Source of the DNA: a virus
Lineage: Duplodnaviria > Heunggongvirae > Uroviricota > Caudoviricetes
Length of the DNA stretch: 8,160 bases
Strand: one strand, 5' to 3'
IMG/VR virus record: IMGVR_UViG_2693429621_000002
Span: 1-8,160 of that record
Shown here: in pieces, positions 1 to 8,160 of the stretch
Layout: each line of letters begins with the position of its first letter
Numbering within the stretch: position 1 is the first letter of the stretch
Translations under genes and position numbers: made by a program
Notes under the pieces: generated by a model
What the model was told of the DNA's origin: nothing
The model's input: the letters and a program-made list of their open reading frames with translations, nothing else
Database searches by the model: none

Positions 1-5
1 AACAA

Positions 6-236
6 ATGGTAGTGTCCGCTATTGCCAGTACACCTCATCCATCACCGAAAAAAATTGGCTTTTACACCATTGGCGATAAAAGCATTTACCTGTATGACCT
101 ACGCCGCATGGATGAAATCATGGAGGCTCTTGATAATCGTTCGTCGATGGATTGGTGTGTTGCTGTTCATGATATGAATGCAGGGTTTGATGAAAAGATT
201 TTGTTCCCCTCATCAGTTGAAAGCACTGCGGGTTAA
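6..236 (+). CDS. hypothetical prophage protein (76 aa from first ATG; may extend 5' beyond the window)
   Basis: Open frame from ATG at 6 to TAA at 234-236; the codon before the ATG in this frame is not a stop, so the true start may lie upstream of the window. No recognisable motif. Confidence 0.4.
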   Translation: MVVSAIASTPHPSPKKIGFYTIGDKSIYLYDLRRMDEIMEALDNRSSMDWCVAVHDMNAGFDEKILFPSSVESTAG

Positions 237-246
237 GGAGTAACAC

Positions 247-414
247 ATGACCACTATTACCAAAGAACGTATTGAATTGTTCATTAAAAACCCGCTTGAA
301 AACGGGCTTACCCGTGGTGAACAAATGGAACTGGCACGGATTGCGCTGGCATCGCTGGAAGCAGAGCCGGTTGTGTTCTGGTTTGAAAAATATCAAGAAG
401 GGGCTACGGCATGA
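247..414 (+). CDS. hypothetical small protein (55 aa), N-terminal paralog of the next gene
   Basis: Strong SD AAGGAG 7 nt upstream of ATG at 247; stop TGA overlaps the next start (ATGA at 411-414). Below the 60-aa cutoff of the ORF track. Shares MTT(I/F)T(K/R)E... and ...(A/V)SL(E/A)AEP motifs with the 411-755 product. Confidence 0.55.
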
Positions 415-755
415 CGACTTTTACCAGAGAGCAGTTAATAGCTCACGCAGAGGAGACTATTGAAGCACAGAGACTGTGCATACCGGGCACAATCGACCAT
501 GACATCATCCGCACATATAAGATGGATATTGCTGTTCTGGAAATCGCACTGGTATCGCTGGCAGCAGAGCCAGCCGGTAAATTGCATGAATACAAACCAG
601 TGGGATATCAGCGTCTGGTCGATGAGTTAACCATGCTGGTAAAGCAGTTAACCTGGCAACTGAGGAAAGCGAAGCCAGACTGCAAATTACCGGATAAGGC
701 GATGAGTTATCTGGAGCGGAACGGACTGATAAGCGTGGAGGATATTTTACGATGA
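411..755 (+). CDS. hypothetical protein (114 aa), paralog of the 247-414 product
   Basis: ORF in track; start overlaps upstream stop and its own stop overlaps the next start (ATGA at 752-755), indicating translational coupling. Internal similarity to the preceding small protein. Confidence 0.6.
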
Positions 756-835
756 CCTGGCCTGAAGCATTAACAACGGTAGGAATTGCGATGGCGGTGG
801 CGCTGGTGGTGTATTCGATTTGCCGCTGGGGATAA
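752..835 (+). CDS. putative 27-aa hydrophobic membrane micro-protein ([27 protein letters not shown])
   Basis: ATG overlaps the stop of the upstream gene (ATGA); single predicted transmembrane helix; ends TAA 833-835. Too short for the ORF track. Could be a chance ORF. Confidence 0.35.
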
Positions 836-841
836 AAACGG

Positions 842-870
842 TTTGCGGGAAAAGGAGAGTTAAGTAGAAT
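842..870 (+). promoter_or_regulatory. candidate sigma70 promoter for hok mRNA (-35 TTTGCG, 17-bp spacer, -10 TAGAAT)
   Basis: Hexamers read directly; the predicted transcript start (about 877) precedes a GCTTGAGGCT motif that I recall from the 5' end of plasmid R1 hok mRNA. Confidence 0.3.
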
Positions 871-1046
871 TGCAGCGGGTGCTTGAGGCTATCTGTCTCA
901 GGCATGAACACCAAAAGGCAGATAGAGAAAAGCCCCAGTTAACATTACGCGTCCGGCAAGACGCTTAACATTAATCTGAGGCTCAATCTATGAACGGCAA
1001 ATCTAGGTTAGCCTCTTACGTGCCGAAAGGCAAGGAGAAGCAGGCT

Positions 1047-1202
1047 ATGAAGCAGCAAAAGGCGATGTTAATCGCCCTGATCGTCATCTGTTTAACCGTC
1101 ATAGTGACGGCACTGGTAACGAGGAAAGACCTCTGCGAGGTACGAATTCGAACCGGCCAGACGGAGGTCGCTGTCTTCACAGCTTACGAACCTGAGGAGT
1201 AA
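1047..1202 (+). CDS. hokD: Hok/Gef-family type I toxin, HokD/RelF-like (51 aa)
   Basis: Translation MKQQKAMLIALIVICLTVIVTALVTRKDLCEVRIRTGQTEVAVFTAYEPEE matches my recollection of E. coli HokD (RelF). The ORF track shows an in-frame 70-aa extension from ATG 990, which may be a mok-like upstream frame or an ORF-finder artefact. Confidence 0.85.
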   Translation: MKQQKAMLIALIVICLTVIVTALVTRKDLCEVRIRTGQTEVAVFTAYEPEE

Positions 1203-1271
1203 GAGACCAGGCGGGGGAGAAATCCCTCGCCACCTCTGATGGGTCAGGCATCCTCAATGCACCCACACTTA

Positions 1272-1300
1272 ACCCGCTTCGGCGGGTTTTTGTTTTTATT
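1272..1300 (+). terminator. rho-independent terminator ending the hok transcript
   Basis: Hairpin ACCCGC-TTCG-GCGGGT followed by TTTTTGTTTTTATTTT. Confidence 0.6.
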
Positions 1301-1310
1301 TTCAACGCGT

Positions 1311-1340
1311 TTGAAGTTTTAGATGGTGCCGGAATAGAAT
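1311..1340 (+). promoter_or_regulatory. candidate sigma70 promoter (-35 TTGAAG, 18-bp spacer, -10 TAGAAT)
   Basis: Hexamers read directly, about 85 nt upstream of the 1423 start codon. Confidence 0.3.
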
Positions 1341-1422
1341 CAAAAATACTTAAGTAGCGCGCAGGGAGAAGAGGGATGGACCCCGAACAGGGGAGTGCTA
1401 TTTATCTGGAAGGATTCTGTTG

Positions 1423-1704
1423 ATGAAAATCGAAGAATTACGTGAAATTTTTAGTGAAGATGGCCTCTATACTGTGCGCGTTGAGAATGGCGCTATTGTC
1501 AGCCACTGCCTTCCAGACTACACAATTCTGATAATTCAGCCGTCTTTGCCAGCAGGCACGGGCGGCGCTCTCACGCATTTAAATCTGATTGGTACCAGCA
1601 TCCCCCATGCACTGAAGAACAGGCCGAATGGCTCATTCAGTGTTACCGCAGGCGCGGATGCGAGGTTAAAAAAGCCCTTAGCCTCGACTACCGTCACTGG
1701 ATAA
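1423..1704 (+). CDS. hypothetical prophage protein (93 aa) in the position occupied by rem in Qin-like prophages
   Basis: ATG at 1423 preceded by GGAAGGA; the ORF track starts 3 nt earlier at TTG. Lies between hok and the DUF968 gene as in Qin. Identity with Rem not verified. Confidence 0.5.
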   Translation: MKIEELREIFSEDGLYTVRVENGAIVSHCLPDYTILIIQPSLPAGTGGALTHLNLIGTSIPHALKNRPNGSFSVTAGADARLKKPLASTTVTG

Positions 1705-1779
1705 TCTCCGTCAGGCTCCCTTACTCCGAACGGCCAACGCGTCCGTCCCGCACATTCCAGCAACGGATCTGGAGGTAAT

Positions 1780-2838
1780 GTGCGGGTATTACTTCGACCT
1801 GTTCTGGTACCGGAACTCGGTCTGGTTATCGTTAAGCCAGGCCGTGAATCAATGTCAGCATTCCATAACGGCAGAATACTGGTGGAGCCGGAACCAAAAA
1901 GCATGCGTAATCTGCCGTCCGGGGTCGTTCCTGCCGCTCGCCAGCCGCTGGTGGAAGACAAAACATTGCTGCCGTTTTTCAGTAACGCACGGGTGATTCG
2001 TGCTGCTGGTGGTGCTGGTGCATTGTCTGACTGGCTGTTGCGCCATATTAAATCCTGCCAGTGGCCACACGGCGATTATCATCACAGCGAAACCGTCATT
2101 CACCGTTATGGTACCGGCGCAATGGTGTTGTGCTGGCACTGCGACAACCAGCTGCGTGACCAGACATCCGAATCACTCGAGCAACTTGCTCATCAAAACC
2201 TGTCAGCATGGATGATTGACGTCATCGGTCACGCAATAAGCGGTACGCAGGAGCGTGAATTATCTCTGGCTGAATTATCCTGGTGGGCGGTCCGCAATCA
2301 GGTGGCGGACGCGCTACCGGAAGCGGTATTACGTCGTTCGCTGGGGTTGCGTGCGGAAAAAATTCGCTCTGTGTACAGTGAAAGCGACATCATACCGGGA
2401 GAGCAGACAGCCACCAGCATACTGAAGCAGCGCACAAAAAATATTGCGTTACTGCCTCACGTCCACCAGCAACAGAACCCACCACAGGAAAAGACGGTGG
2501 TCAGCATTGCCGTTGATCCGGAGTCACCGGCTCAGTATCTCCAGCGCCAGAAATCACAACGGGAAGAGATGCCTGTATACACGCGCTGGGTAAAAACGCA
2601 GAAATGCATGACGTGTGGCAATCAGGCAGATGATCCGCATCACATCATTGGTCATGGACTGGGAGGGATGGGAACAAAGGCTGATGATTTGTTTGTTATT
2701 CCGTTATGCCGTAAATGCCGTAACGAACTACATGCCGGAGTAAAAGATTTTGAAGAGAAACACGGCAGTCAGCTGTTGTTGCTGATTCGTTTTTTAATGC
2801 ACGCGAGAAATTCGGGTGTTCTGAAGTGGAAAGCATAA
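1780..2838 (+). CDS. DUF968 / YdfU-like prophage protein with C-terminal Cys/His cluster (352 aa)
   Basis: Long ORF from GTG 1780 (SD GGAGG at 1771-1775); the true start may be internal. C-terminus has CMTCGN...DPHHIIGH...PLCRKCRNELH, an HNH/zinc-finger-like arrangement. Stop TAA abuts the rusA start. Confidence 0.65.
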   Translation: MRVLLRPVLVPELGLVIVKPGRESMSAFHNGRILVEPEPKSMRNLPSGVVPAARQPLVEDKTLLPFFSNARVIRAAGGAGALSDWLLRHIKSCQWPHGDYHHSETVIHRYGTGAMVLCWHCDNQLRDQTSESLEQLAHQNLSAWMIDVIGHAISGTQERELSLAELSWWAVRNQVADALPEAVLRRSLGLRAEKIRSVYSESDIIPGEQTATSILKQRTKNIALLPHVHQQQNPPQEKTVVSIAVDPESPAQYLQRQKSQREEMPVYTRWVKTQKCMTCGNQADDPHHIIGHGLGGMGTKADDLFVIPLCRKCRNELHAGVKDFEEKHGSQLLLLIRFLMHARNSGVLKWKA

Positions 2839-3219
2839 ATGACCGAGCGCATAGAATTTGTTTTACCTTACCCGCCGACGGTGAACACTTACTGGCGTCG
2901 TCGTGGCAGCACATATTTTGTATCAAAAGCCGGGGAGCGTTATCGCCGGGCAGTGGCGCTTATTGTTCGCCAGCAGCGGCTGAAATTAAGCCTGTCCGGA
3001 AGGTTGGCAATAAAAATTATTGCAGAACCACCGGATAAGCGCCGCCGTGACCTGGACAATATTCTGAAAGCGCCGCTGGATGCGCTGACGCATGCGGGGT
3101 TGCTAATGGACGATGAGCAGTTTGATGAAATCAATATCGTTCGTGGTCAGCCAGTATCTGGTGGACGTCTGGGGGTGAAGATTTACCCCATAATGCATGA
3201 AGAGCAGGTCAAAAAATGA
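2839..3219 (+). CDS. rusA: RusA-family Holliday junction resolvase (126 aa)
   Basis: Conserved RusA blocks LPYPPTVNTYWRRRG, DKRRRDLDNILKAPLDALTHAGL and GGRLGVKI resemble E. coli RusA; SD GGAAAG upstream; stop overlaps the next start (ATGA 3216-3219). Confidence 0.85.
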   Translation: MTERIEFVLPYPPTVNTYWRRRGSTYFVSKAGERYRRAVALIVRQQRLKLSLSGRLAIKIIAEPPDKRRRDLDNILKAPLDALTHAGLLMDDEQFDEINIVRGQPVSGGRLGVKIYPIMHEEQVKK

Positions 3220-4043
3220 AACTGGAAGATTTACCGAAATACTACTCCCCAAAATCCCCCGGCCTGACTGATGCATCGGCCTCAACGTCGAAAGATGCGC
3301 TGAGTATCACTGATGTGATGGCCGCGCAGGGCATGACACAGAATCGGGCTGAGATGGGGGTTTCTGCGTTCCTTGGGAAAATGGGCATTAGTATGAATGA
3401 CAGAGAGCGGGCAACAGAATTGCTGACAGAATATGCACTCAGTCGGTGTGATCGCGTGGCGGCGTTAAGAAAACTCCCGGCAGAAATAAAACCGGCAGTG
3501 ATGCGTATTATGGCTTCGTATGCGTTTGAAGATTATGCCCGTAGCGCGGCGAGCAAAAAACAGTGCCCCTGCTGTCACGGAAAAAAATTTATTGAAAGCG
3601 AGGTTTTTACAAACAAGATCCAGTATCCGGATGGTAAGCCGCCGGTATGGGCAAAGTGTACGAAAGGTGTGTATCCGTCTTACTGGGAAGAATGGAAAAA
3701 AGTCAGGGAGGTGGTAAAAGTTGCCTGTCCGGAGTGTGGCGGAAAGGGTGAGGTTTCCACCGCCTGTAAGGATTGCCGTGGGCGTGGTGTCGCCATTCAT
3801 CGTGAAGAGTCGGTAAAACGTGGTATGCCTGTTATCAGAGACTGCCAGCGTTGTGGTGGTCGTGGCTATGAAAGACTACCATCAACGGAGGCATTTAATG
3901 CTATATGCGAGGTGACAAACCAGATAACACGCGCGTCATGGGAAAAAACAGTTAAGAAATTCTATGATGCGCTGGTGACTCGGTTTGATATTGAAGAAGC
4001 ATGGGCTGAGCGGCAGTTAAAAAAGGTAACTAGGTNAGGTTGA
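3216..4043 (+). CDS. Q-type late antiterminator, QuuQ-like, with zinc-finger motifs (about 274 aa)
   Basis: Repeated CxxC motifs (CPCCHGKKF, CPECGGKG...CKDCRGRG, CQRCGGRG); lies immediately upstream of a promoter plus terminator pair typical of PR'/tR'. The 3' end contains an N at 4036; the duplicate copy shows the true C-terminus ...KKVTR. Confidence 0.7.
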   Translation: MKLEDLPKYYSPKSPGLTDASASTSKDALSITDVMAAQGMTQNRAEMGVSAFLGKMGISMNDRERATELLTEYALSRCDRVAALRKLPAEIKPAVMRIMASYAFEDYARSAASKKQCPCCHGKKFIESEVFTNKIQYPDGKPPVWAKCTKGVYPSYWEEWKKVREVVKVACPECGGKGEVSTACKDCRGRGVAIHREESVKRGMPVIRDCQRCGGRGYERLPSTEAFNAICEVTNQITRASWEKTVKKFYDALVTRFDIEEAWAERQLKKVTRXG

Positions 4044-4128
4044 TTTTTCCGGAATCTGTGGTAAATTCGTCATAACTATGGGCGTTTTATGCCTGACGTT
4101 AGAAGAGTTTCTACAACCCGCCGCCGAG
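3629..4128. repeat. copy 1 of duplicated segment (Q 3' end, PR'-like promoter, start of tR' hairpin) ending at the scaffold gap
   Basis: Matches 4150-4651 except for three substitutions (3962 C/T, 3980 T/C, 4076 T/G) and a small indel around the N at 4036. A copy of the promoter sits at about 4040-4067. Confidence 0.9.
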
Positions 4129-4149
4129 NNNNNNNNNNNNNNNNNNNNN
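4129..4149. other. scaffold gap (21 N)
   Basis: Run of N characters read directly. Confidence 0.97.
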
Positions 4150-4558
4150 GGATGGTAAGCCGCCGGTATGGGCAAAGTGTACGAAAGGTGTGTATCCGTC
4201 TTACTGGGAAGAATGGAAAAAAGTCAGGGAGGTGGTAAAAGTTGCCTGTCCGGAGTGTGGCGGAAAGGGTGAGGTTTCCACCGCCTGTAAGGATTGCCGT
4301 GGGCGTGGTGTCGCCATTCATCGTGAAGAGTCGGTAAAACGTGGTATGCCTGTTATCAGAGACTGCCAGCGTTGTGGTGGTCGTGGCTATGAAAGACTAC
4401 CATCAACGGAGGCATTTAATGCTATATGCGAGGTGACAAACCAGATAACACGCGCGTCATGGGAAAAAACAGTTAAGAAATTTTATGATGCGCTGGTGAC
4501 CCGGTTTGATATTGAAGAAGCATGGGCTGAGCGGCAGTTAAAAAAGGTAACTAGGTAA
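4150..4558 (+). pseudogene. duplicated 3' portion of the Q antiterminator ORF (partial, begins at gap edge); probably contig overlap rather than a separate gene
   Basis: In-frame continuation of Q codons ending ...QLKKVTR-TAA at 4556-4558. The ORF track reports only the part from the internal ATG at 4190. Confidence 0.6.
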
Positions 4559-4563
4559 CAAGG

Positions 4564-4591
4564 TTGATTTTTCCGGAATCTGTGGTAAATT
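4564..4591 (+). promoter_or_regulatory. PR'-like late promoter (-35 TTGATT, 16-bp spacer, -10 TAAATT), presumed Q-utilisation region
   Basis: Hexamers read directly, immediately 3' of the Q gene, with a terminator about 60 nt downstream; this is the lambdoid PR'/qut/tR' arrangement. Confidence 0.55.
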
Positions 4592-4638
4592 CGTCATAAC
4601 GATGGGCGTTTTATGCCTGACGTTAGAAGAGTTTCTAC

Positions 4639-4663
4639 AACCCGCCGCCGAGCGGGTTTTTTA
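4639..4663 (+). terminator. tR'-like rho-independent terminator
   Basis: Hairpin AACCCGC-CGCCGA-GCGGGTT followed by TTTTTTAT. Confidence 0.65.
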
Positions 4664-4782
4664 TGACTGAAATCGCGTCAGTACAGTAAACGCGCTGGTG
4701 GCGGTGAATACCTGTCTTTCAGCTTGCTGGCTTTTTCGACAAGAGTTATTGGTGTGTCACGTTAACCGGAAAAGGAAAAGAC

Positions 4783-4980
4783 ATGCTAAAACAGCAGGAT
4801 ATGACAGAAACCGCCAGAGTGGTGTTTAATGAATTAAGCGTTACCGAACCGGCGACAGTCGGGGAGATAGCGCAGAATACTTACCTTTCACGCGAACGCT
4901 GCCAGTTAATACTGACCCAGCTGGTTATGGCGGGTCTGGCAGACTATCAGTTCGGTTGTTACAGACGCCTTCCGCAGTGA
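4783..4980 (+). CDS. small putative winged-helix/HTH DNA-binding protein (65 aa)
   Basis: SD AAAGGAAAAG 6 nt before ATG; the segment PATVGEIAQNTYLSRERCQLILTQLVMAGLA looks like a helix-turn-helix. An alternative start is ATG 4801. Confidence 0.5.
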   Translation: MLKQQDMTETARVVFNELSVTEPATVGEIAQNTYLSRERCQLILTQLVMAGLADYQFGCYRRLPQ

Positions 4981-4994
4981 AGGCTTTTTTATTT
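4967..4994 (+). terminator. rho-independent terminator overlapping the stop codon of the 4783-4980 ORF
   Basis: Hairpin GCCTTC-CGCAGT-GAAGGC followed by TTTTTTATTT. Confidence 0.5.
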
Positions 4995-5007
4995 GTGGTA
5001 AATGGGC

Positions 5008-5038
5008 GGCTGGTGGGTGTTAGGGGCACCCACCAGCC
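5008..5038 (+). promoter_or_regulatory. perfect 12-bp inverted repeat hairpin (GGCTGGTGGGTG-ttagggg-CACCCACCAGCC) upstream of the methyltransferase gene
   Basis: Read directly; not followed by a T-run. A near-palindrome CTGCTTTGCGCAAAAGCAG lies at 5080-5098, about 35 nt before the methyltransferase start. Confidence 0.4.
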
Positions 5039-5130
5039 ATCTGCTCATGCGTTGGGTTCACAAGCAAACCTCAGGCCCACTGCTTTGCGCAAAAGCAGAA
5101 TGAGCCTATCAGAGACAGGCTTAATGATCC

Positions 5131-6189
5131 ATGCTTAATACTGTAAAAATATCCAGTTGTGAGTTAATCAACGCCGACTGCCTGGAATTTATCCGGTCGT
5201 TACCCGAAAATTCTGTTGACCTGATAGTCACGGACCCGCCGTACTTTAAAGTGAAGCCTGAGGGCTGGGATAACCAGTGGAAGGGCGACGATGATTACCT
5301 GAAGTGGCTGGACCAGTGTCTGGCGCAGTTCTGGCGGGTGCTGAAACCTGCCGGAAGTCTTTACCTGTTCTGTGGTCATCGCCTGGCATCTGATATCGAA
5401 ATCATGATGCGTGAACGCTTCAGTGTGCTGAACCATATTATCTGGGCGAAGCCGTCCGGACGCTGGAACGGATGCAACAAGGAAAGCCTGCGGGCGTATT
5501 TCCCCGCCACAGAGCGCATTCTGTTCGCGGAACATTATCAGGGGCCGTATCGTCCGAAAGATGCCGGGTATGCGGCGAAGGGCAGTGCACTGAAACAGCA
5601 TGTGATGGCCCCGCTGATTTCTTACTTTCGTGATGCGCGAGCTGCCCTGGGGATAACGGCAAAACAGATTGCAGATGCCACAGGAAAGAAAAACATGGTG
5701 TCGCACTGGTTCAGTGCCGGTCAGTGGCAGTTGCCGAATGAAAGCGATTATCTGAAATTACAGGCGCTGTTTGCCCGGGTGGCAGAAGAGAAGCATCGGC
5801 GTGGTGAACTGGAAAAGCTCCACCACCAGCTGGTGGATACGTATACCTCACTGAACCGGCAGTATGCGGAGCTGCTGAGTGAATATAAACATCTGCGGCG
5901 GTATTTTGGCGTGACGGTGCAGGTGCCGTATACCGATGTGTGGACGCATAAACCGGTGCAGTTCTATCCCGGGAAACATCCGTGCGAAAAACCGGCAGAA
6001 ATGCTGCAGCAGATAATCAGCGCTAGCAGTCGTCCGGGTGACCTGATTGCAGATTTTTTCATGGGGTTGGGTTCGACAGTGAAAGCGGCACTGGCGCTCG
6101 GGCGTCGTGCAATTGGCGTTGAGCTGGAGACTGAACGTTTTGAGCAGACGGTTCGGGAAGTACAGGATTTAGTCAGCCAGAACGGATGA
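5131..6189 (+). CDS. beta-class DNA amino-methyltransferase, probably N6-adenine, orphan (352 aa)
   Basis: N-terminal motif IV LIVTDPPYF and C-terminal motif I DFFMGLGST. This order (IV before I) is the beta-class arrangement, and DPPY favours N6-adenine. No restriction endonuclease ORF is adjacent. Confidence 0.85.
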   Translation: MLNTVKISSCELINADCLEFIRSLPENSVDLIVTDPPYFKVKPEGWDNQWKGDDDYLKWLDQCLAQFWRVLKPAGSLYLFCGHRLASDIEIMMRERFSVLNHIIWAKPSGRWNGCNKESLRAYFPATERILFAEHYQGPYRPKDAGYAAKGSALKQHVMAPLISYFRDARAALGITAKQIADATGKKNMVSHWFSAGQWQLPNESDYLKLQALFARVAEEKHRRGELEKLHHQLVDTYTSLNRQYAELLSEYKHLRRYFGVTVQVPYTDVWTHKPVQFYPGKHPCEKPAEMLQQIISASSRPGDLIADFFMGLGSTVKAALALGRRAIGVELETERFEQTVREVQDLVSQNG

Positions 6190-6229
6190 TATTGAAGAAT
6201 TAATTACGCGTCGTTATTATGCGGCTCCC

Positions 6230-6305
6230 GGCCCTTTAGCTCAGTGGTGAGAGCGAGCGACTCATAATCGCCAGGTCGCTGGTTCAAATCCAGCAAGGGC
6301 CACCA
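6230..6305 (+). tRNA. ileZ: tRNA-Ile2 (anticodon CAU, lysidine type; ileX/ileZ-like), 76 nt with encoded CCA
   Basis: Manual cloverleaf: acceptor GGCCCTT/AAGGGCC, D-arm GCTC-AGTGGTGA-GAGC, anticodon loop CTCATAA, T-loop TTCAAAT. Closely resembles my recollection of E. coli ileX. Confidence 0.85.
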
Positions 6306-6312
6306 TCACATA

Positions 6313-6389
6313 CCGCCATTAGCTCATCAGGAAAGAGCGCCAGCCTTCGAAGCTGGCTGCGCGGGGTTCAAGTCCCCGATGGCGGTCCA
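6313..6389 (+). tRNA. argN: tRNA-Arg (anticodon UCG), 77 nt with encoded CCA
   Basis: Acceptor CCGCCAT/ATGGCGG, anticodon stem CCAGC/GCTGG, loop CTTCGAA, T-arm CGGGG-TTCAAGT-CCCCG, discriminator T, CCA. Confidence 0.8.
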
Positions 6390-6402
6390 TTATCTGCATC
6401 AT

Positions 6403-6479
6403 GCGTTGTTAGCTCAGCCGGACAGAGCAATTGCCTTCTAAGCAATCGGTCACTGGTTCGAATCCAGTACAGCGCGCCA
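6403..6479 (+). tRNA. argO: tRNA-Arg (anticodon UCU), 77 nt with encoded CCA
   Basis: Acceptor GCGTTGT/ACAGCGC (one G-U pair), anticodon stem ATTGC/GCAAT, loop CTTCTAA, T-loop TTCGAAT, discriminator G, CCA. Confidence 0.85.
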
Positions 6480-6616
6480 TATTCATTCTTCCAGATTCCT
6501 TCCGGCAGAGCCTTATACTGAAATATACCTGGCTCAGGATATTGTTGAAAATATTTTATGTTTGTCAAAAATAAAAGTTCTGTTAAGTATTGATTGAGTG
6601 TTTGTTATACGGTCTA

Positions 6617-6943
6617 ATGGTTTTTTCAGCATTAAATATTTATCATTCATATGGTGTGGGTAGAGTGAATATTGATGAGGCGTCGGGGTGTTTCATCCTT
6701 AGGCAGCGTATTGATATAGTCAATGCAGCACGAGCAAAGGCCTTCAGCCGTTTGACAGTTTTGTTCTGTACTCCTGATCGTCTTTCGGGAAGAGACGTTA
6801 TTATTCTGAATAGTGATGCTATACAGAGGGTTTGCGATGAGTTCATGGTTGCTAATTCAGAATTATTTGCTCTTGTTCAGGAGTACAACAGAATAGCCAG
6901 GACCTGTGGTATGGATGAACTTCGGATTACTCATCTGGGGTAG
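6617..6943 (+). CDS. hypothetical cargo protein (108 aa from first ATG; ORF track extends to TTG at 6590)
   Basis: Open frame of more than 100 codons in an AT-rich region; no clear SD. Arg codons are 6/11 AGA/AGG plus one CGA, and Ile includes 3 ATA, matching the adjacent tRNAs. No recognisable domain. Confidence 0.4.
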   Translation: MVFSALNIYHSYGVGRVNIDEASGCFILRQRIDIVNAARAKAFSRLTVLFCTPDRLSGRDVIILNSDAIQRVCDEFMVANSELFALVQEYNRIARTCGMDELRITHLG

Positions 6944-7023
6944 ATACATATCTGGATTATCACCTGTTACGGTAAAAAGTGATTGCTTACTGTTTTTGTG
7001 AATGGCATTGCAGCAGCCGGATA

Positions 7024-7110
7024 ATGTCAGTGCTGGCTGACGGTGTGCTGGTGGCGGGTGTGGTGGTTGTTGCTTTCCCGTTGCTGAAAAAGAAAACGCC
7101 AGACTGTTAG
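7024..7110 (+). CDS. possible 28-aa hydrophobic micro-protein (MSVLADGVLVAGVVVVAFPLLKKKTPDC)
   Basis: ATG with weak SD (GGA); one hydrophobic helix followed by KKK. Speculative; may be non-coding. Confidence 0.2.
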   Translation: MSVLADGVLVAGVVVVAFPLLKKKTPDC

Positions 7111-7335
7111 CCGGGTATCAGTTAGCGGGAGAAATTTTTAAATACTTCACAATTCAGGCGGTTGACTGTTGTCTGGTTTGCGGGGAGTTTGTTAAAAGAA
7201 ACTGGCATGGTGAATCCCCCTGTGCGGAGGGGCAATCAGCGAGTAGGTATATGGGATAATCGCGGATTCAGGTGCTGGTACTGAATTCACCGGGAGGCAC
7301 CCGGCACCATGCAATGGCACATAGCGCCACTCTCC

Positions 7336-7370
7336 AGCCCCTCTCCGGAGGGGCTGTTTATATTGATTTT
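7336..7370 (+). terminator. strong rho-independent terminator, + orientation
   Basis: Perfect 8-bp stem AGCCCCTC-tccg-GAGGGGCT followed by GTTTATATTGATTTT. Confidence 0.6.
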
Positions 7371-7387
7371 GTCAGATGTGAGTAAAC

Positions 7388-7421
7388 TCCTTATGGACTT
7401 TGTTGTTTTAGTCCATAAGGA
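7388..7421. promoter_or_regulatory. perfect 12-bp inverted repeat (TCCTTATGGACT-ttgttgtttt-AGTCCATAAGGA) overlapping the stop codon of the minus-strand ORF
   Basis: Read directly; on the minus-strand mRNA the last 10 codons and the stop lie inside this hairpin. Confidence 0.4.
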
Positions 7422-7726
7422 CATATTTGCAGAGTGCAACGGTTATTAAAGCATTCATTCAATACGTTATCTGTATTTGTAGGGCATTCCTGGCTATTTT
7501 TGATTGAATTCCAGAATGTTTTATTGAATGGTACTACGTTGTAAATGGTTACAGGTAGCACTTTGTTATTGAGCATGATGCCTGTGTGAGTCAGTGTAAA
7601 TATACTTTCAGGAGGTAAGAAAGCATCCGATTGATACCAGATTATTAATTTTATTTTACTCCATATGACTGAAAAAGATATTCCGCATGATGGCTGGATA
7701 ACTGTATCAATCACAATCCACTTCAT
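7391..7726 (-). CDS. hypothetical cargo protein (111 aa), antisense to the phage late operon, Cys-containing C-terminus
   Basis: ATG at 7726 with SD AAGGA 7 nt upstream; 6 of 13 Ile codons are the rare ATA (read by the adjacent tRNA-Ile2). C-terminal [25 protein letters not shown] has four Cys. No recognisable domain. Confidence 0.6.
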
Positions 7727-7986
7727 TTAGTTTCCTTGTTTATGCCTTGCTGGTGATGTTCTGAAAAGTATAAATGATATTTTTGAATGTAAACCATAGA
7801 GCAGAATTATTTTTCTGATGTTGTTTATTGTTTATTTAAATGCAGGGTGGTTTATATCTCGTCTTGTAGTTTATCCATGCATATCTGCTTGATAATCAGG
7901 TTTTTATTTAAGGTATGGTTTTGTGTTTTTTCTGTATTACATGTCAGGTATTTTAAAGAATTATTTTTCAGATGGTGGAAAGAACC

Positions 7987-8160
7987 ATGGCATTTAAACA
8001 CTATGATGTTGTCAGGGCGGCGCCGCCGTCAGATCTTGCGGAAAAGCTGACACATAAACTGAAAGAGGGCTGGCAGCCGTTTGGTAGTCCGGTGGCCATA
8101 ACCCCTTATACCCTGAGGTGTACTGGCAATAGCGGACACTACCATTTGTTCTTTTTTTAA
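7987..8160 (+). CDS. small prophage protein (57 aa from ATG 7987; 62 aa from ATG 7972), tentatively DUF1737-like
   Basis: SD-like GGTGGAAAG before ATG 7987; stop TAA at 8158-8160 directly after a T7 homopolymer at the window edge. Similarity to the N-terminal domain of Stx-phage NanS-p-type esterases is from memory and unverified. Confidence 0.45.
   Translation: MAFKHYDVVRAAPPSDLAEKLTHKLKEGWQPFGSPVAITPYTLRCTGNSGHYHLFFF

Follow-up and report, generated by a model that had tools for sequence, protein, structure and literature searches.

The interval between positions 6944 and 7390 of an 8,160-nt stretch of viral DNA (Caudoviricetes; IMG/VR record IMGVR_UViG_2693429621_000002, positions 1 to 8,160; this whole stretch is referred to here as the window) very probably consists of two adjacent moron elements, a gene for a DUF3927/TciB-like small protein and a gene for a small RNA (sRNA) of the STnc100 family, which would act as an Hfq-dependent trans-acting RNA. 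This reading is carried by the family membership of the RNA, by its structure and the covariation within it, by its identity to an RNA that is expressed and bound by Hfq, and by its independence from the DUF3927 gene, all of which are established. In a preliminary description the interval had been seen as a structured convergent intergenic region, with two mini-ORFs (open reading frames), two related hairpins and a strong terminator, that could represent a small RNA, a type I toxin/antisense pair or simply the 3' untranslated region (UTR) of the upstream ORF. All the features listed there are indeed present, in place or within a few bases of it, and the first of those three options is the one borne out, by a full-length STnc100 match that is near-identical to the detected RNA EcOnc05. 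The significance is mainly one of annotation, as an apparently intergenic region turns out to hold a small protein gene and an sRNA gene.

The family assignment is based on a comparison of the whole window with Rfam at gathering thresholds, complemented by a second scan of positions 6480-8160 at E ≤ 1. The covariance-model search (cmscan) returned STnc100 (RF02076) with 132.4 bits against a gathering score of 47 (E = 8.9e-30), in an untruncated alignment that covers model positions 1-206 of 206, which places the element within the family; in the second scan, STnc100 was the sole match in 6480-8160. The family is widespread, with matches in 3408 of the 5426 genomes and up to 13 places per genome, and the best match place is at least 99% identical in 2005 Escherichia coli records. 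STnc100 ranks with the sRNA families that are most abundant in sequenced bacteria, without a listed function (PMC9029176). Judging from the sequence, the window element is therefore an already known one, STnc100 in Rfam and EcOnc05 in O157.

EcOnc05 and EcOnc06, encoded by the prophages Sp4 and Sp17 of E. coli O157:H7 Sakai, were recovered in all five Hfq data sets obtained by cross-linking and analysis of cDNA (CRAC), and gave Northern bands of ~222 and ~177 nt, respectively (Tree et al. 2014, PMC4104026). Window positions 7135-7355 are 98.6% identical to the EcOnc05 locus of Sp4 (positions 905-1125 of the fetched locus). The reverse complement of the EcOnc05 Northern probe is found without mismatch at 7234-7268, and that of EcOnc06 corresponds to 7246-7280 with one mismatch. 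Provided that the published coordinates still hold, the Hfq-crosslinked peak of EcOnc05 falls at approximately 7237-7345. In addition, the quantitative PCR primers published for 'STnc_100' in vesicles of Shiga toxin-producing E. coli match 7207-7226 and 7281-7300 (PMC12370729). By analogy with the Sp4 locus, the window copy would thus be a discrete Hfq-associated transcript. It resembles EcOnc05 and EcOnc06 in the full-length match to the model, in the moron position downstream of the tRNA genes ileZ-argN-argO, and in core, tail and terminator. However, the window copy follows the genes orf117 and DUF3927 instead of following the tRNAs directly, and the convergent partner sRNA (of EcOnc08 or AgvB type) is replaced in the window by a convergent iraM gene. 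In Sp4, the module stands directly after ileZ-argN-argO and a terminator, with no DUF3927 gene, and the convergent sRNA EcOnc08 comes next.

The RNA holds a structured core arranged as a four-way junction, whose helices are listed in Table 1. The minimum free energy (MFE) fold of 7176-7365 reproduces the Rfam consensus, that is, a closing helix around P1, P3 and P4 followed by the terminator, which answers the folding check proposed in the preliminary description. The energy of this plus-strand fold (-74.6 kcal/mol, z = -2.26) is a weak signal taken alone, and the strong structural evidence comes from homology and covariation. Relatives were gathered with the 21-mer CACCGGGAGGCACCCGGCACC by scanning one genome per species, which yielded at least 120 loci; the genera among those listed include Escherichia, Shigella, Salmonella, Citrobacter, Klebsiella, Enterobacter, Kosakonia, Pantoea, Erwinia and Rahnella, along with others. 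Rfam confirmed STnc100 in 17 of the 18 loci tested (48-90 bits), the exception being L044, from a record titled Streptomyces. A total of 108 distinct cores were extracted from the listed loci, and 70 diverse ones were aligned with MAFFT anchored on conserved blocks. Across the four helices of these 70 copies, paired cells reach 92.9% versus 82.1% in shuffles, and the covariation score is 0.349, compared with 0.139 in shuffles (0 of 500 as high) and 0.06-0.08 when the partners are slid. Compensatory changes occur in the closing helix, in P1 and, most of all, in P3. The constancy of P4 and of the motif GGUGAAU is partly an ascertainment effect, because both were used in the search pattern; nevertheless, the independent Rfam consensus also marks them as highly conserved.

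The two related GC-rich hairpins of the preliminary description correspond to P1 and to the terminator of STnc100. They share the 9-mer CGGAGGGGC, present at 7225-7233 and 7346-7354, where 0.04 occurrences were expected and none of 200 shuffles reached two.

The core also contains a pseudoknot, which is well supported across the whole STnc100 family. The linker that follows P1 on its 3' side can pair with the P3 apical loop, and this complementarity is kept by sequences that differ widely between copies: CAGC/GCUG in the window, and UUAACC/GGUUAA, AGGCUAC/GUAGCCU and AGCCACAA/UUGUGGCU in other copies. The linker of each copy was compared with its own loop and with loops permuted among copies, a test that replaced column counting on the MAFFT alignment because the helix register shifts from copy to copy. 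In 93 non-redundant copies, own-copy complementarity was 5.60 versus 3.91±0.10 after permutation, with 0 of 2000 permutations as high, and an independent set of viral contigs gave 5.93 versus 3.96±0.17 (again 0 of 2000). The helix sequence co-varies in loci L002-L121 and L128-L247. The single difference of EcOnc06 in this region (GCUGAU in the loop) converts a U-G pair into U-A, and the related RNA PasD, described below, retains the contact as AUGAUC/GAUCAU. The consensus line of RF02076 does not show this pairing, and RNAalifold, the predictor used in a 2026 preprint that links STnc100 with PasD1/2 of enteropathogenic E. coli (EPEC), is unable to represent a pseudoknot. A supported tertiary contact, together with the division between core and tail, suggests concrete mutations to separate the role of the core from that of the tail, and the pseudoknot, if true, offers a handle for testing the function of the core itself.

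Further insight into the ends of the RNA is provided by PasD. PasD1 from EPEC E2348/69 (NC_011601.1, 1060260-1060432, 173 nt) and PasD2 have been seen by RNA-seq and Northern blotting, and their stability has been reported to depend on Hfq. At the PasD1 locus, the DUF3927 gene lies ~40 nt upstream of the RNA, and the order DUF3927-then-sRNA is found in both EPEC PasD loci, as in the window. PasD also shares with the window RNA a homologous promoter, the closing helix, P3 and the linker/P3-loop pseudoknot, as well as a seed located between core and terminator. On the other hand, in PasD (EcOnc13 in enterohaemorrhagic E. coli) P1 is shorter and P4 is reduced, and the 3' tail with its UGUGAG seed is unrelated to that of the window, so the window RNA was not assigned to PasD proper. 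The PasD loci give no match to Rfam STnc100 at gathering score; sequence comparison indicates that PasD is a degraded relative of STnc100 that falls below the Rfam threshold.

The mapped 5' end of PasD1 is the G of GCAUGGUG, which is the first base of the closing helix; this G (also the G of GCAUGGUGAAUCC) lies 7 nt after a TTGACT-17-TTAAAA promoter. This promoter aligns in the window with TTGTCT and TG-n-TAAAAG (7190-7198), and it is solely through this homology that a promoter is proposed there. In 105 copies, an A/T-rich, -10-like signal appears at -17 to -12 before GGUG. According to the alignment with PasD, the window sRNA probably starts near G7205 from a weak extended -10 promoter, which would give an RNA of ~158-160 nt, compatible with the EcOnc06 band. 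The ~222-nt band of EcOnc05 suggests an extra, longer isoform, and a second start near 7140-7155 is possible by analogy. If transcription did start near 7150, the leader GGGGAGU (7182-7188) is predicted to pair with ACUCUCC (7326-7332) in the 3' linker, and this pairing would hide the candidate seed of the long isoform and leave that of the short one free.

Downstream of the core, the 3' tail comprises a linker and a Rho-independent terminator. The strong plus-strand terminator reported previously is a 9-bp hairpin followed by TTTATATT, and it is the sole intrinsic-terminator-like site within 6944-7390. Many phage matches end at query position 174 (window position 7313), which points to a 3' tail that is swapped between variants of the family. 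The linker segment 7319-7334 is predicted to be accessible in the short isoform, and it is the probable seed given the analogy with PasD, whose UGUGAG seed and chimeras detected by RIL-seq (a method in which interacting RNAs are ligated and sequenced) are located at the equivalent site, just before the terminator. The mechanism proposed is that the STnc100 RNA would be transcribed from the plus strand, terminate at the hairpin and U-tract, and consist of two modules, a 108-nt structured 5' core with the pseudoknot, conserved across Enterobacterales, and a variant-specific 3' tail formed by a single-stranded linker and the terminator with its U-tail. Hfq would bind this RNA, as it does its relatives, and the 3' linker, possibly along with the P2 loop, would base-pair with mRNAs in trans, as RIL-seq indicates for PasD. 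What we infer in this scheme is where precisely the 5' end lies, which segment is the seed, which mRNAs are targeted and what role the core plays.

The other element is a protein gene. The hydrophobic mini-ORF of 28 aa noted previously at 7024-7110 is open, but it is not a stand-alone gene; it is the in-frame C-terminal transmembrane part of a 43-aa ORF with a GTG start. The 43-aa protein matches Pfam PF13064 (DUF3927) with 95.6 bits against a cut-off of 25 (E = 1.7e-27), which assigns it to this family, and also phrog_1470 (E = 7.8e-13), a family labelled in PHROGs as 'TciB-like inhibition of cell division or resistance to colicin'. The Prokaryotic Genome Annotation Pipeline (PGAP) annotates it in identical DNA as WP_000562553.1, a DUF3927 family protein. 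Homologous genes of 52 aa lie upstream of both PasD1 and PasD2 in EPEC, and dN/dS versus the EPEC homologue is ~0.2, a value obtained from a small sample of 24 codons with dS near saturation. With regard to the conservation of the mini-ORFs, which had been put forward as a check, the plus-strand ORF is thus part of a real family member, and the minus-strand one is intact only in near-identical DNA.

This minus-strand ORF does exist, together with the AGGGGG motif that had been taken as a strong Shine-Dalgarno sequence, but it does not behave as a genuine gene. It encodes MPVSFNKLPANQTTVNRLNCEVFKNFSR, for which no Pfam match was found; its ATG is the complement of a CAT in the closing helix, and AGGGGG is the complement of 7216-7221, one arm of P1. 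In the loci of Sp17, Shigella, E. albertii and PasD, the ORF is reduced to 2-13 aa. It has been judged spurious, an apparent antisense shadow of the promoter and 5' end of the sRNA. It is barely credible that the minus strand codes for protein, either through an ORF of 28/37 aa at 7122-7235 or through one of 42 aa at 7192-7320. Such ORFs exist, PGAP lists a partial 'hypothetical protein' here, and in EPEC an ORF of 132 aa has been annotated antisense to PasD1. Nevertheless, they lack family matches and are broken in diverged copies, and their conservation is accounted for by the RNA on the opposite strand, where substitutions in the helices are compensatory. Both annotated coding sequences, the one at 7192-7320 and that antisense to PasD1, are probably annotation artefacts that arise because the RNA on the other strand is conserved; the mini-ORF and the PGAP pseudogene were discarded as antisense shadows of the RNA. 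In the annotation of identical DNA from E. coli 042, PGAP reports the DUF3927 protein, the partial minus-strand 'hypothetical' pseudogene and IraM, and the RNA gene is absent. Genome pipelines thus omit the sRNA gene and add a spurious antisense pseudogene instead.

Two further proposals have been made for the interval. According to one of them, it would be only the 3' UTR of the DUF3927 mRNA, and the small RNA a processing product with no internal start. The scan detected no terminator between the DUF3927 stop codon (7110) and the sRNA, so any DUF3927 transcript would read through the sRNA, and to this trivial extent the 3' UTR idea is expected to hold; the order of both genes is also kept in the two EPEC PasD loci, and the promoter match is weak. 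However, the module 7135-7355 is independent and occurs behind other genes, as it is expressed in Sakai Sp4 after the tRNA cluster and its terminator; moreover, the 5' end of PasD1 immediately follows a promoter of its own, and outside E. coli no DUF3927 gene accompanies the element. For these reasons, an origin as a mere 3' UTR is improbable. The other proposal, a type I toxin-antitoxin system in which the toxin role would fall to the DUF3927 peptide and that of antitoxin to an antisense or partly complementary RNA, or to the mini-ORF transcript, is more improbable still. The peptide is short and, as in many type I toxins, has a hydrophobic helix and a KKK tail, its PHROGs label alludes to the inhibition of cell division, and a genuine hok/sok module is present elsewhere in the window, with which the pair shares a small hydrophobic ORF beside a structured small RNA. 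In contrast to hok/sok, the pair in the window shows no antisense overlap, complementarity or obligate linkage. The RNA and the ORF share one strand, with the RNA lying downstream and no overlap between them, and no minus-strand promoter-like site faces into the ORF in the promoter scan. In a crude test, the duplex energy was -95.2 kcal/mol versus -96.3±6.3 kcal/mol, and 155 of 300 shuffles did equally well or better. The RNA is found without DUF3927 in Sp4, tblastn placed DUF3927 close to the core in just 4 of 122 loci, and the minus-strand mini-ORF is not conserved. The type I reading was rejected because the two elements are co-directional, show no excess complementarity, and the RNA exists without the ORF.

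Several observations weigh against the interpretation as an Hfq-dependent, base-pairing sRNA. The evidence of expression comes from related loci and not from the window locus itself; the consensus promoter scan called no promoter directly upstream of the sRNA; and the EcOnc05 band of ~222 nt exceeds the length expected if the RNA starts at 7205. For the STnc100 subfamily, the literature covered reports no target that is direct and experimentally verified. The convergent anti-sRNA partner is absent, since no match to AgvB (RF02702) or AsxR (RF02703) appeared in 6480-8160 even at E ≤ 1. Finally, a good sigma-70 match is found in only ~20% of the copies, and a terminator within 120 nt in ~36%, which indicates that the conserved unit is the core and not the usual parts of a base-pairing sRNA.

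It is conceivable, if unlikely, that this core is the functional unit and acts without seed pairing, by binding a protein or ligand, as a decoy or sponge, as a tRNA-like processed element or as a cis leader. The Hfq-binding 3' tail of E. coli would then be a secondary add-on, which is compatible with the best explanation for the window copy. Conservation from E. coli as far as Pantoea, Erwinia and Rahnella concerns the core, and not the promoter, tail or terminator; a pseudoknot, a four-way junction and near-constant loops come together in this core. Its copies may form tandem arrays, with four copies in 1.1 kb on a Pantoea plasmid; some copies of C. braakii stop 6-7 nt short of a tRNA gene; a tRNA is present within 1 kb of 18 of the 108 copies, on the strand of the copy in all 18 cases; and one subfamily is found 30-200 nt upstream of the gene for a KdgM porin in several genera. 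Against these data, tandem copies with individual promoters typify sRNA genes rather than riboswitches, neither the length nor the sequence of the spacer to kdgM is constant, and part of the constancy of P4 and GGUGAAU reflects ascertainment. No CCA or discriminator follows the closing helix, and ARAGORN makes no call in the element of the window or in the three C. braakii copies that are not directly adjacent to a tRNA. In addition, relatives of the RNA bind Hfq and form chimeras with mRNAs. A more radical version, that STnc100 has been mis-filed as an ordinary base-pairing sRNA and is a pseudoknotted four-way-junction domain with its own function, onto which different lineages graft promoters, seeds and terminators, appears somewhat more doubtful.

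Returning to the reading as an Hfq-dependent sRNA, two known groups of phage RNAs can be compared with the window copy. EcOnc27/sRNA103 is an STnc100 copy located 75 nt downstream of stx2B in Stx2 phages. It is bound by Hfq and shares with the window copy the family and the moron position, but it is only ~69-77% identical to it; many phage records of this EcOnc27 type match only the promoter and core and differ in the 3' tail, and the window is devoid of stx genes. The overexpression of EcOnc27/sRNA103 raises the fimZ and espA transcripts, by a mechanism that is unclear, and this RNA has been tied in the literature to outer-membrane vesicles (PMC12370729). STnc100 copies adjoin Shiga toxin genes, and single-nucleotide polymorphisms in EcOnc27/sRNA103 have been reported as predictors of haemolytic uraemic syndrome (PMC12711010). 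The second group comprises the anti-sRNA dyads of lambdoid prophages formed with AgvB and AsxR, which occupy the same niche between the late promoter and the lysis genes, and of which STnc100-type RNAs are the sense members. A convergent partner of the AgvB/AsxR type was sought on the minus strand of the window and, in contrast to those dyads, none was found. The convergent iraM gene sits at this position, the site where O157 prophages carry a convergent anti-sRNA (AgvB, AsxR or EcOnc08).

Across Enterobacterales, the STnc100 domain occurs in prophages, in plasmids (there as tandem arrays), in tRNA clusters and at a chromosomal kdgM-porin locus. Tandem copies, among them the four cores on the Pantoea plasmid, were observed in L036 (894-2010), L073 (3717-5512) and L030 (3418-3847). 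In C. braakii, cores are interleaved with tRNA genes, and it is the closing helix that ends shortly before the next tRNA. A tRNA-like element was considered and rejected, since ARAGORN reports three true tRNAs only in the window and no conserved CCA follows the closing helix; the likeness of the core to a tRNA is limited to a cloverleaf-like order of helices and to tRNA abutment. A subfamily with a core of 134 nt is present in Klebsiella, Kosakonia, Raoultella and Enterobacter at a conserved chromosomal locus (L048, 1844-2092; also L009, L020, L025, L027, L029, L037, L041, L070, L085, L097, L106, L107, L108 and L116). The order in this locus is a LuxR-type regulator on the opposite strand, the core, the KdgM porin on the same strand as the core, and a periplasmic pectate lyase. 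This core could be a leader or a syntenic sRNA gene, and a riboswitch is made less plausible by the variable spacer and by a U-tract that is poor or absent in most members.

Table 1. Features of the window that are discussed in the text, with their positions and the basis of each assignment.
Feature	Position	Strand	Basis or remark
STnc100-family sRNA gene (Rfam RF02076)	7176-7365	+	cmscan; homologue of EcOnc05/EcOnc06, O157:H7 Sakai
Structured core, four-way junction	7205-7312	+	MFE fold equals Rfam structure; covariation
Closing helix	7205-7212 with 7305-7312	+	8 bp
P1 (hairpin 1)	7215-7232; stem 7215-7220 with 7226-7232	+	
Pseudoknot strand 1, P1-P2 linker AAUCAGC	7235-7240	+	pairs with P3 loop 7274-7279
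P2 region, variable	7241-7263	+	
P3	7264-7271 with 7281-7288	+	
Pseudoknot strand 2, GCUGGU in P3 apical loop	7274-7279	+	
P4	7290-7294 with 7300-7304	+	
Candidate sigma-70 promoter, short isoform	7169-7198	+	-35 TTGTCT 7169-7174; TG 7190-7191; -10 TTAAAA/TAAAAG 7192-7198; homology to PasD
Linker from core to terminator, candidate seed region (ACAUAGC, CUCUC)	7313-7334	+	inferred; accessibility prediction and PasD analogy
Rho-independent terminator	7335-7364	+	stem 7335-7356, 9 bp (7 G-C), then TTTATATT / UUUAUAUU; terminator scan, fold, Rfam alignment
DUF3927/TciB-like moron gene	6979-7110	+	43 aa, GTG start; small membrane protein
28-aa mini-ORF	7208-7122	-	encodes MPVSFNKLPANQTTVNRLNCEVFKNFSR; judged spurious
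PGAP partial 'hypothetical protein' pseudogene	7192-7320	-	42-aa ORF
iraM (prophage-borne)	7391-7726	-	NF007393, 162 bits; IraM per PGAP in identical DNA
Upstream ORF (orf117)	6590-6943	+	117 aa; phrog_2873, 234 bits, residues 10-117, function not given by family
Three tRNAs (ileZ-argN-argO)	6230-6479		ARAGORN: Met-CAT, Arg-TCG, Arg-TCT; also Rfam matches
Antiterminator Q ORF	3216-4043	+	275 aa, full length
Second antiterminator-Q-domain ORF	4190-4558	+	122 aa, DnaJ-type zinc finger and Antiterm domain only
hok/sok type I module	877-1202	+	Rfam sok, 112 bits at 877-1052; hok/mok ORF 990-1202; hokD in matching genomes

The window belongs to a lambdoid late region, and the element is found, as expected for STnc100, in the late moron region of a prophage or phage. 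The gene order in the window and in matching genomes is hokD/sok, DUF968, RusA, antiterminator Q, DNA methylase, the tRNAs, the interval 6944-7390, iraM, and then holin and lysozyme. Many STnc100 loci have Q upstream and holin, lysozyme and spanin downstream, in agreement with the published scheme in which an 'sRNA dyad' lies between the late promoter and the lysis genes. In E. coli 042 and many other strains, the sequence of 6900-7450 recurs with 100% identity, and for the whole window the best match among the complete E. coli genomes of the collection is 94.9% identical; the prophage is a mosaic of common modules. The iraM gene of the window is only 70% identical in DNA to that of K-12, and no STnc100 copy was found beside the latter. 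Regarding the remaining genes, the tRNA called as Met-CAT by ARAGORN is annotated as tRNA-Ile (ileZ) in matching genomes, and the second, 122-aa Q ORF may be the remnant of another late-control module acquired through mosaic recombination. The 117-aa ORF upstream of the DUF3927 gene is left unannotated by PGAP in copies that are 98% and 97% identical (E. coli 042 and strain 131, respectively), and its true start is probably M10.

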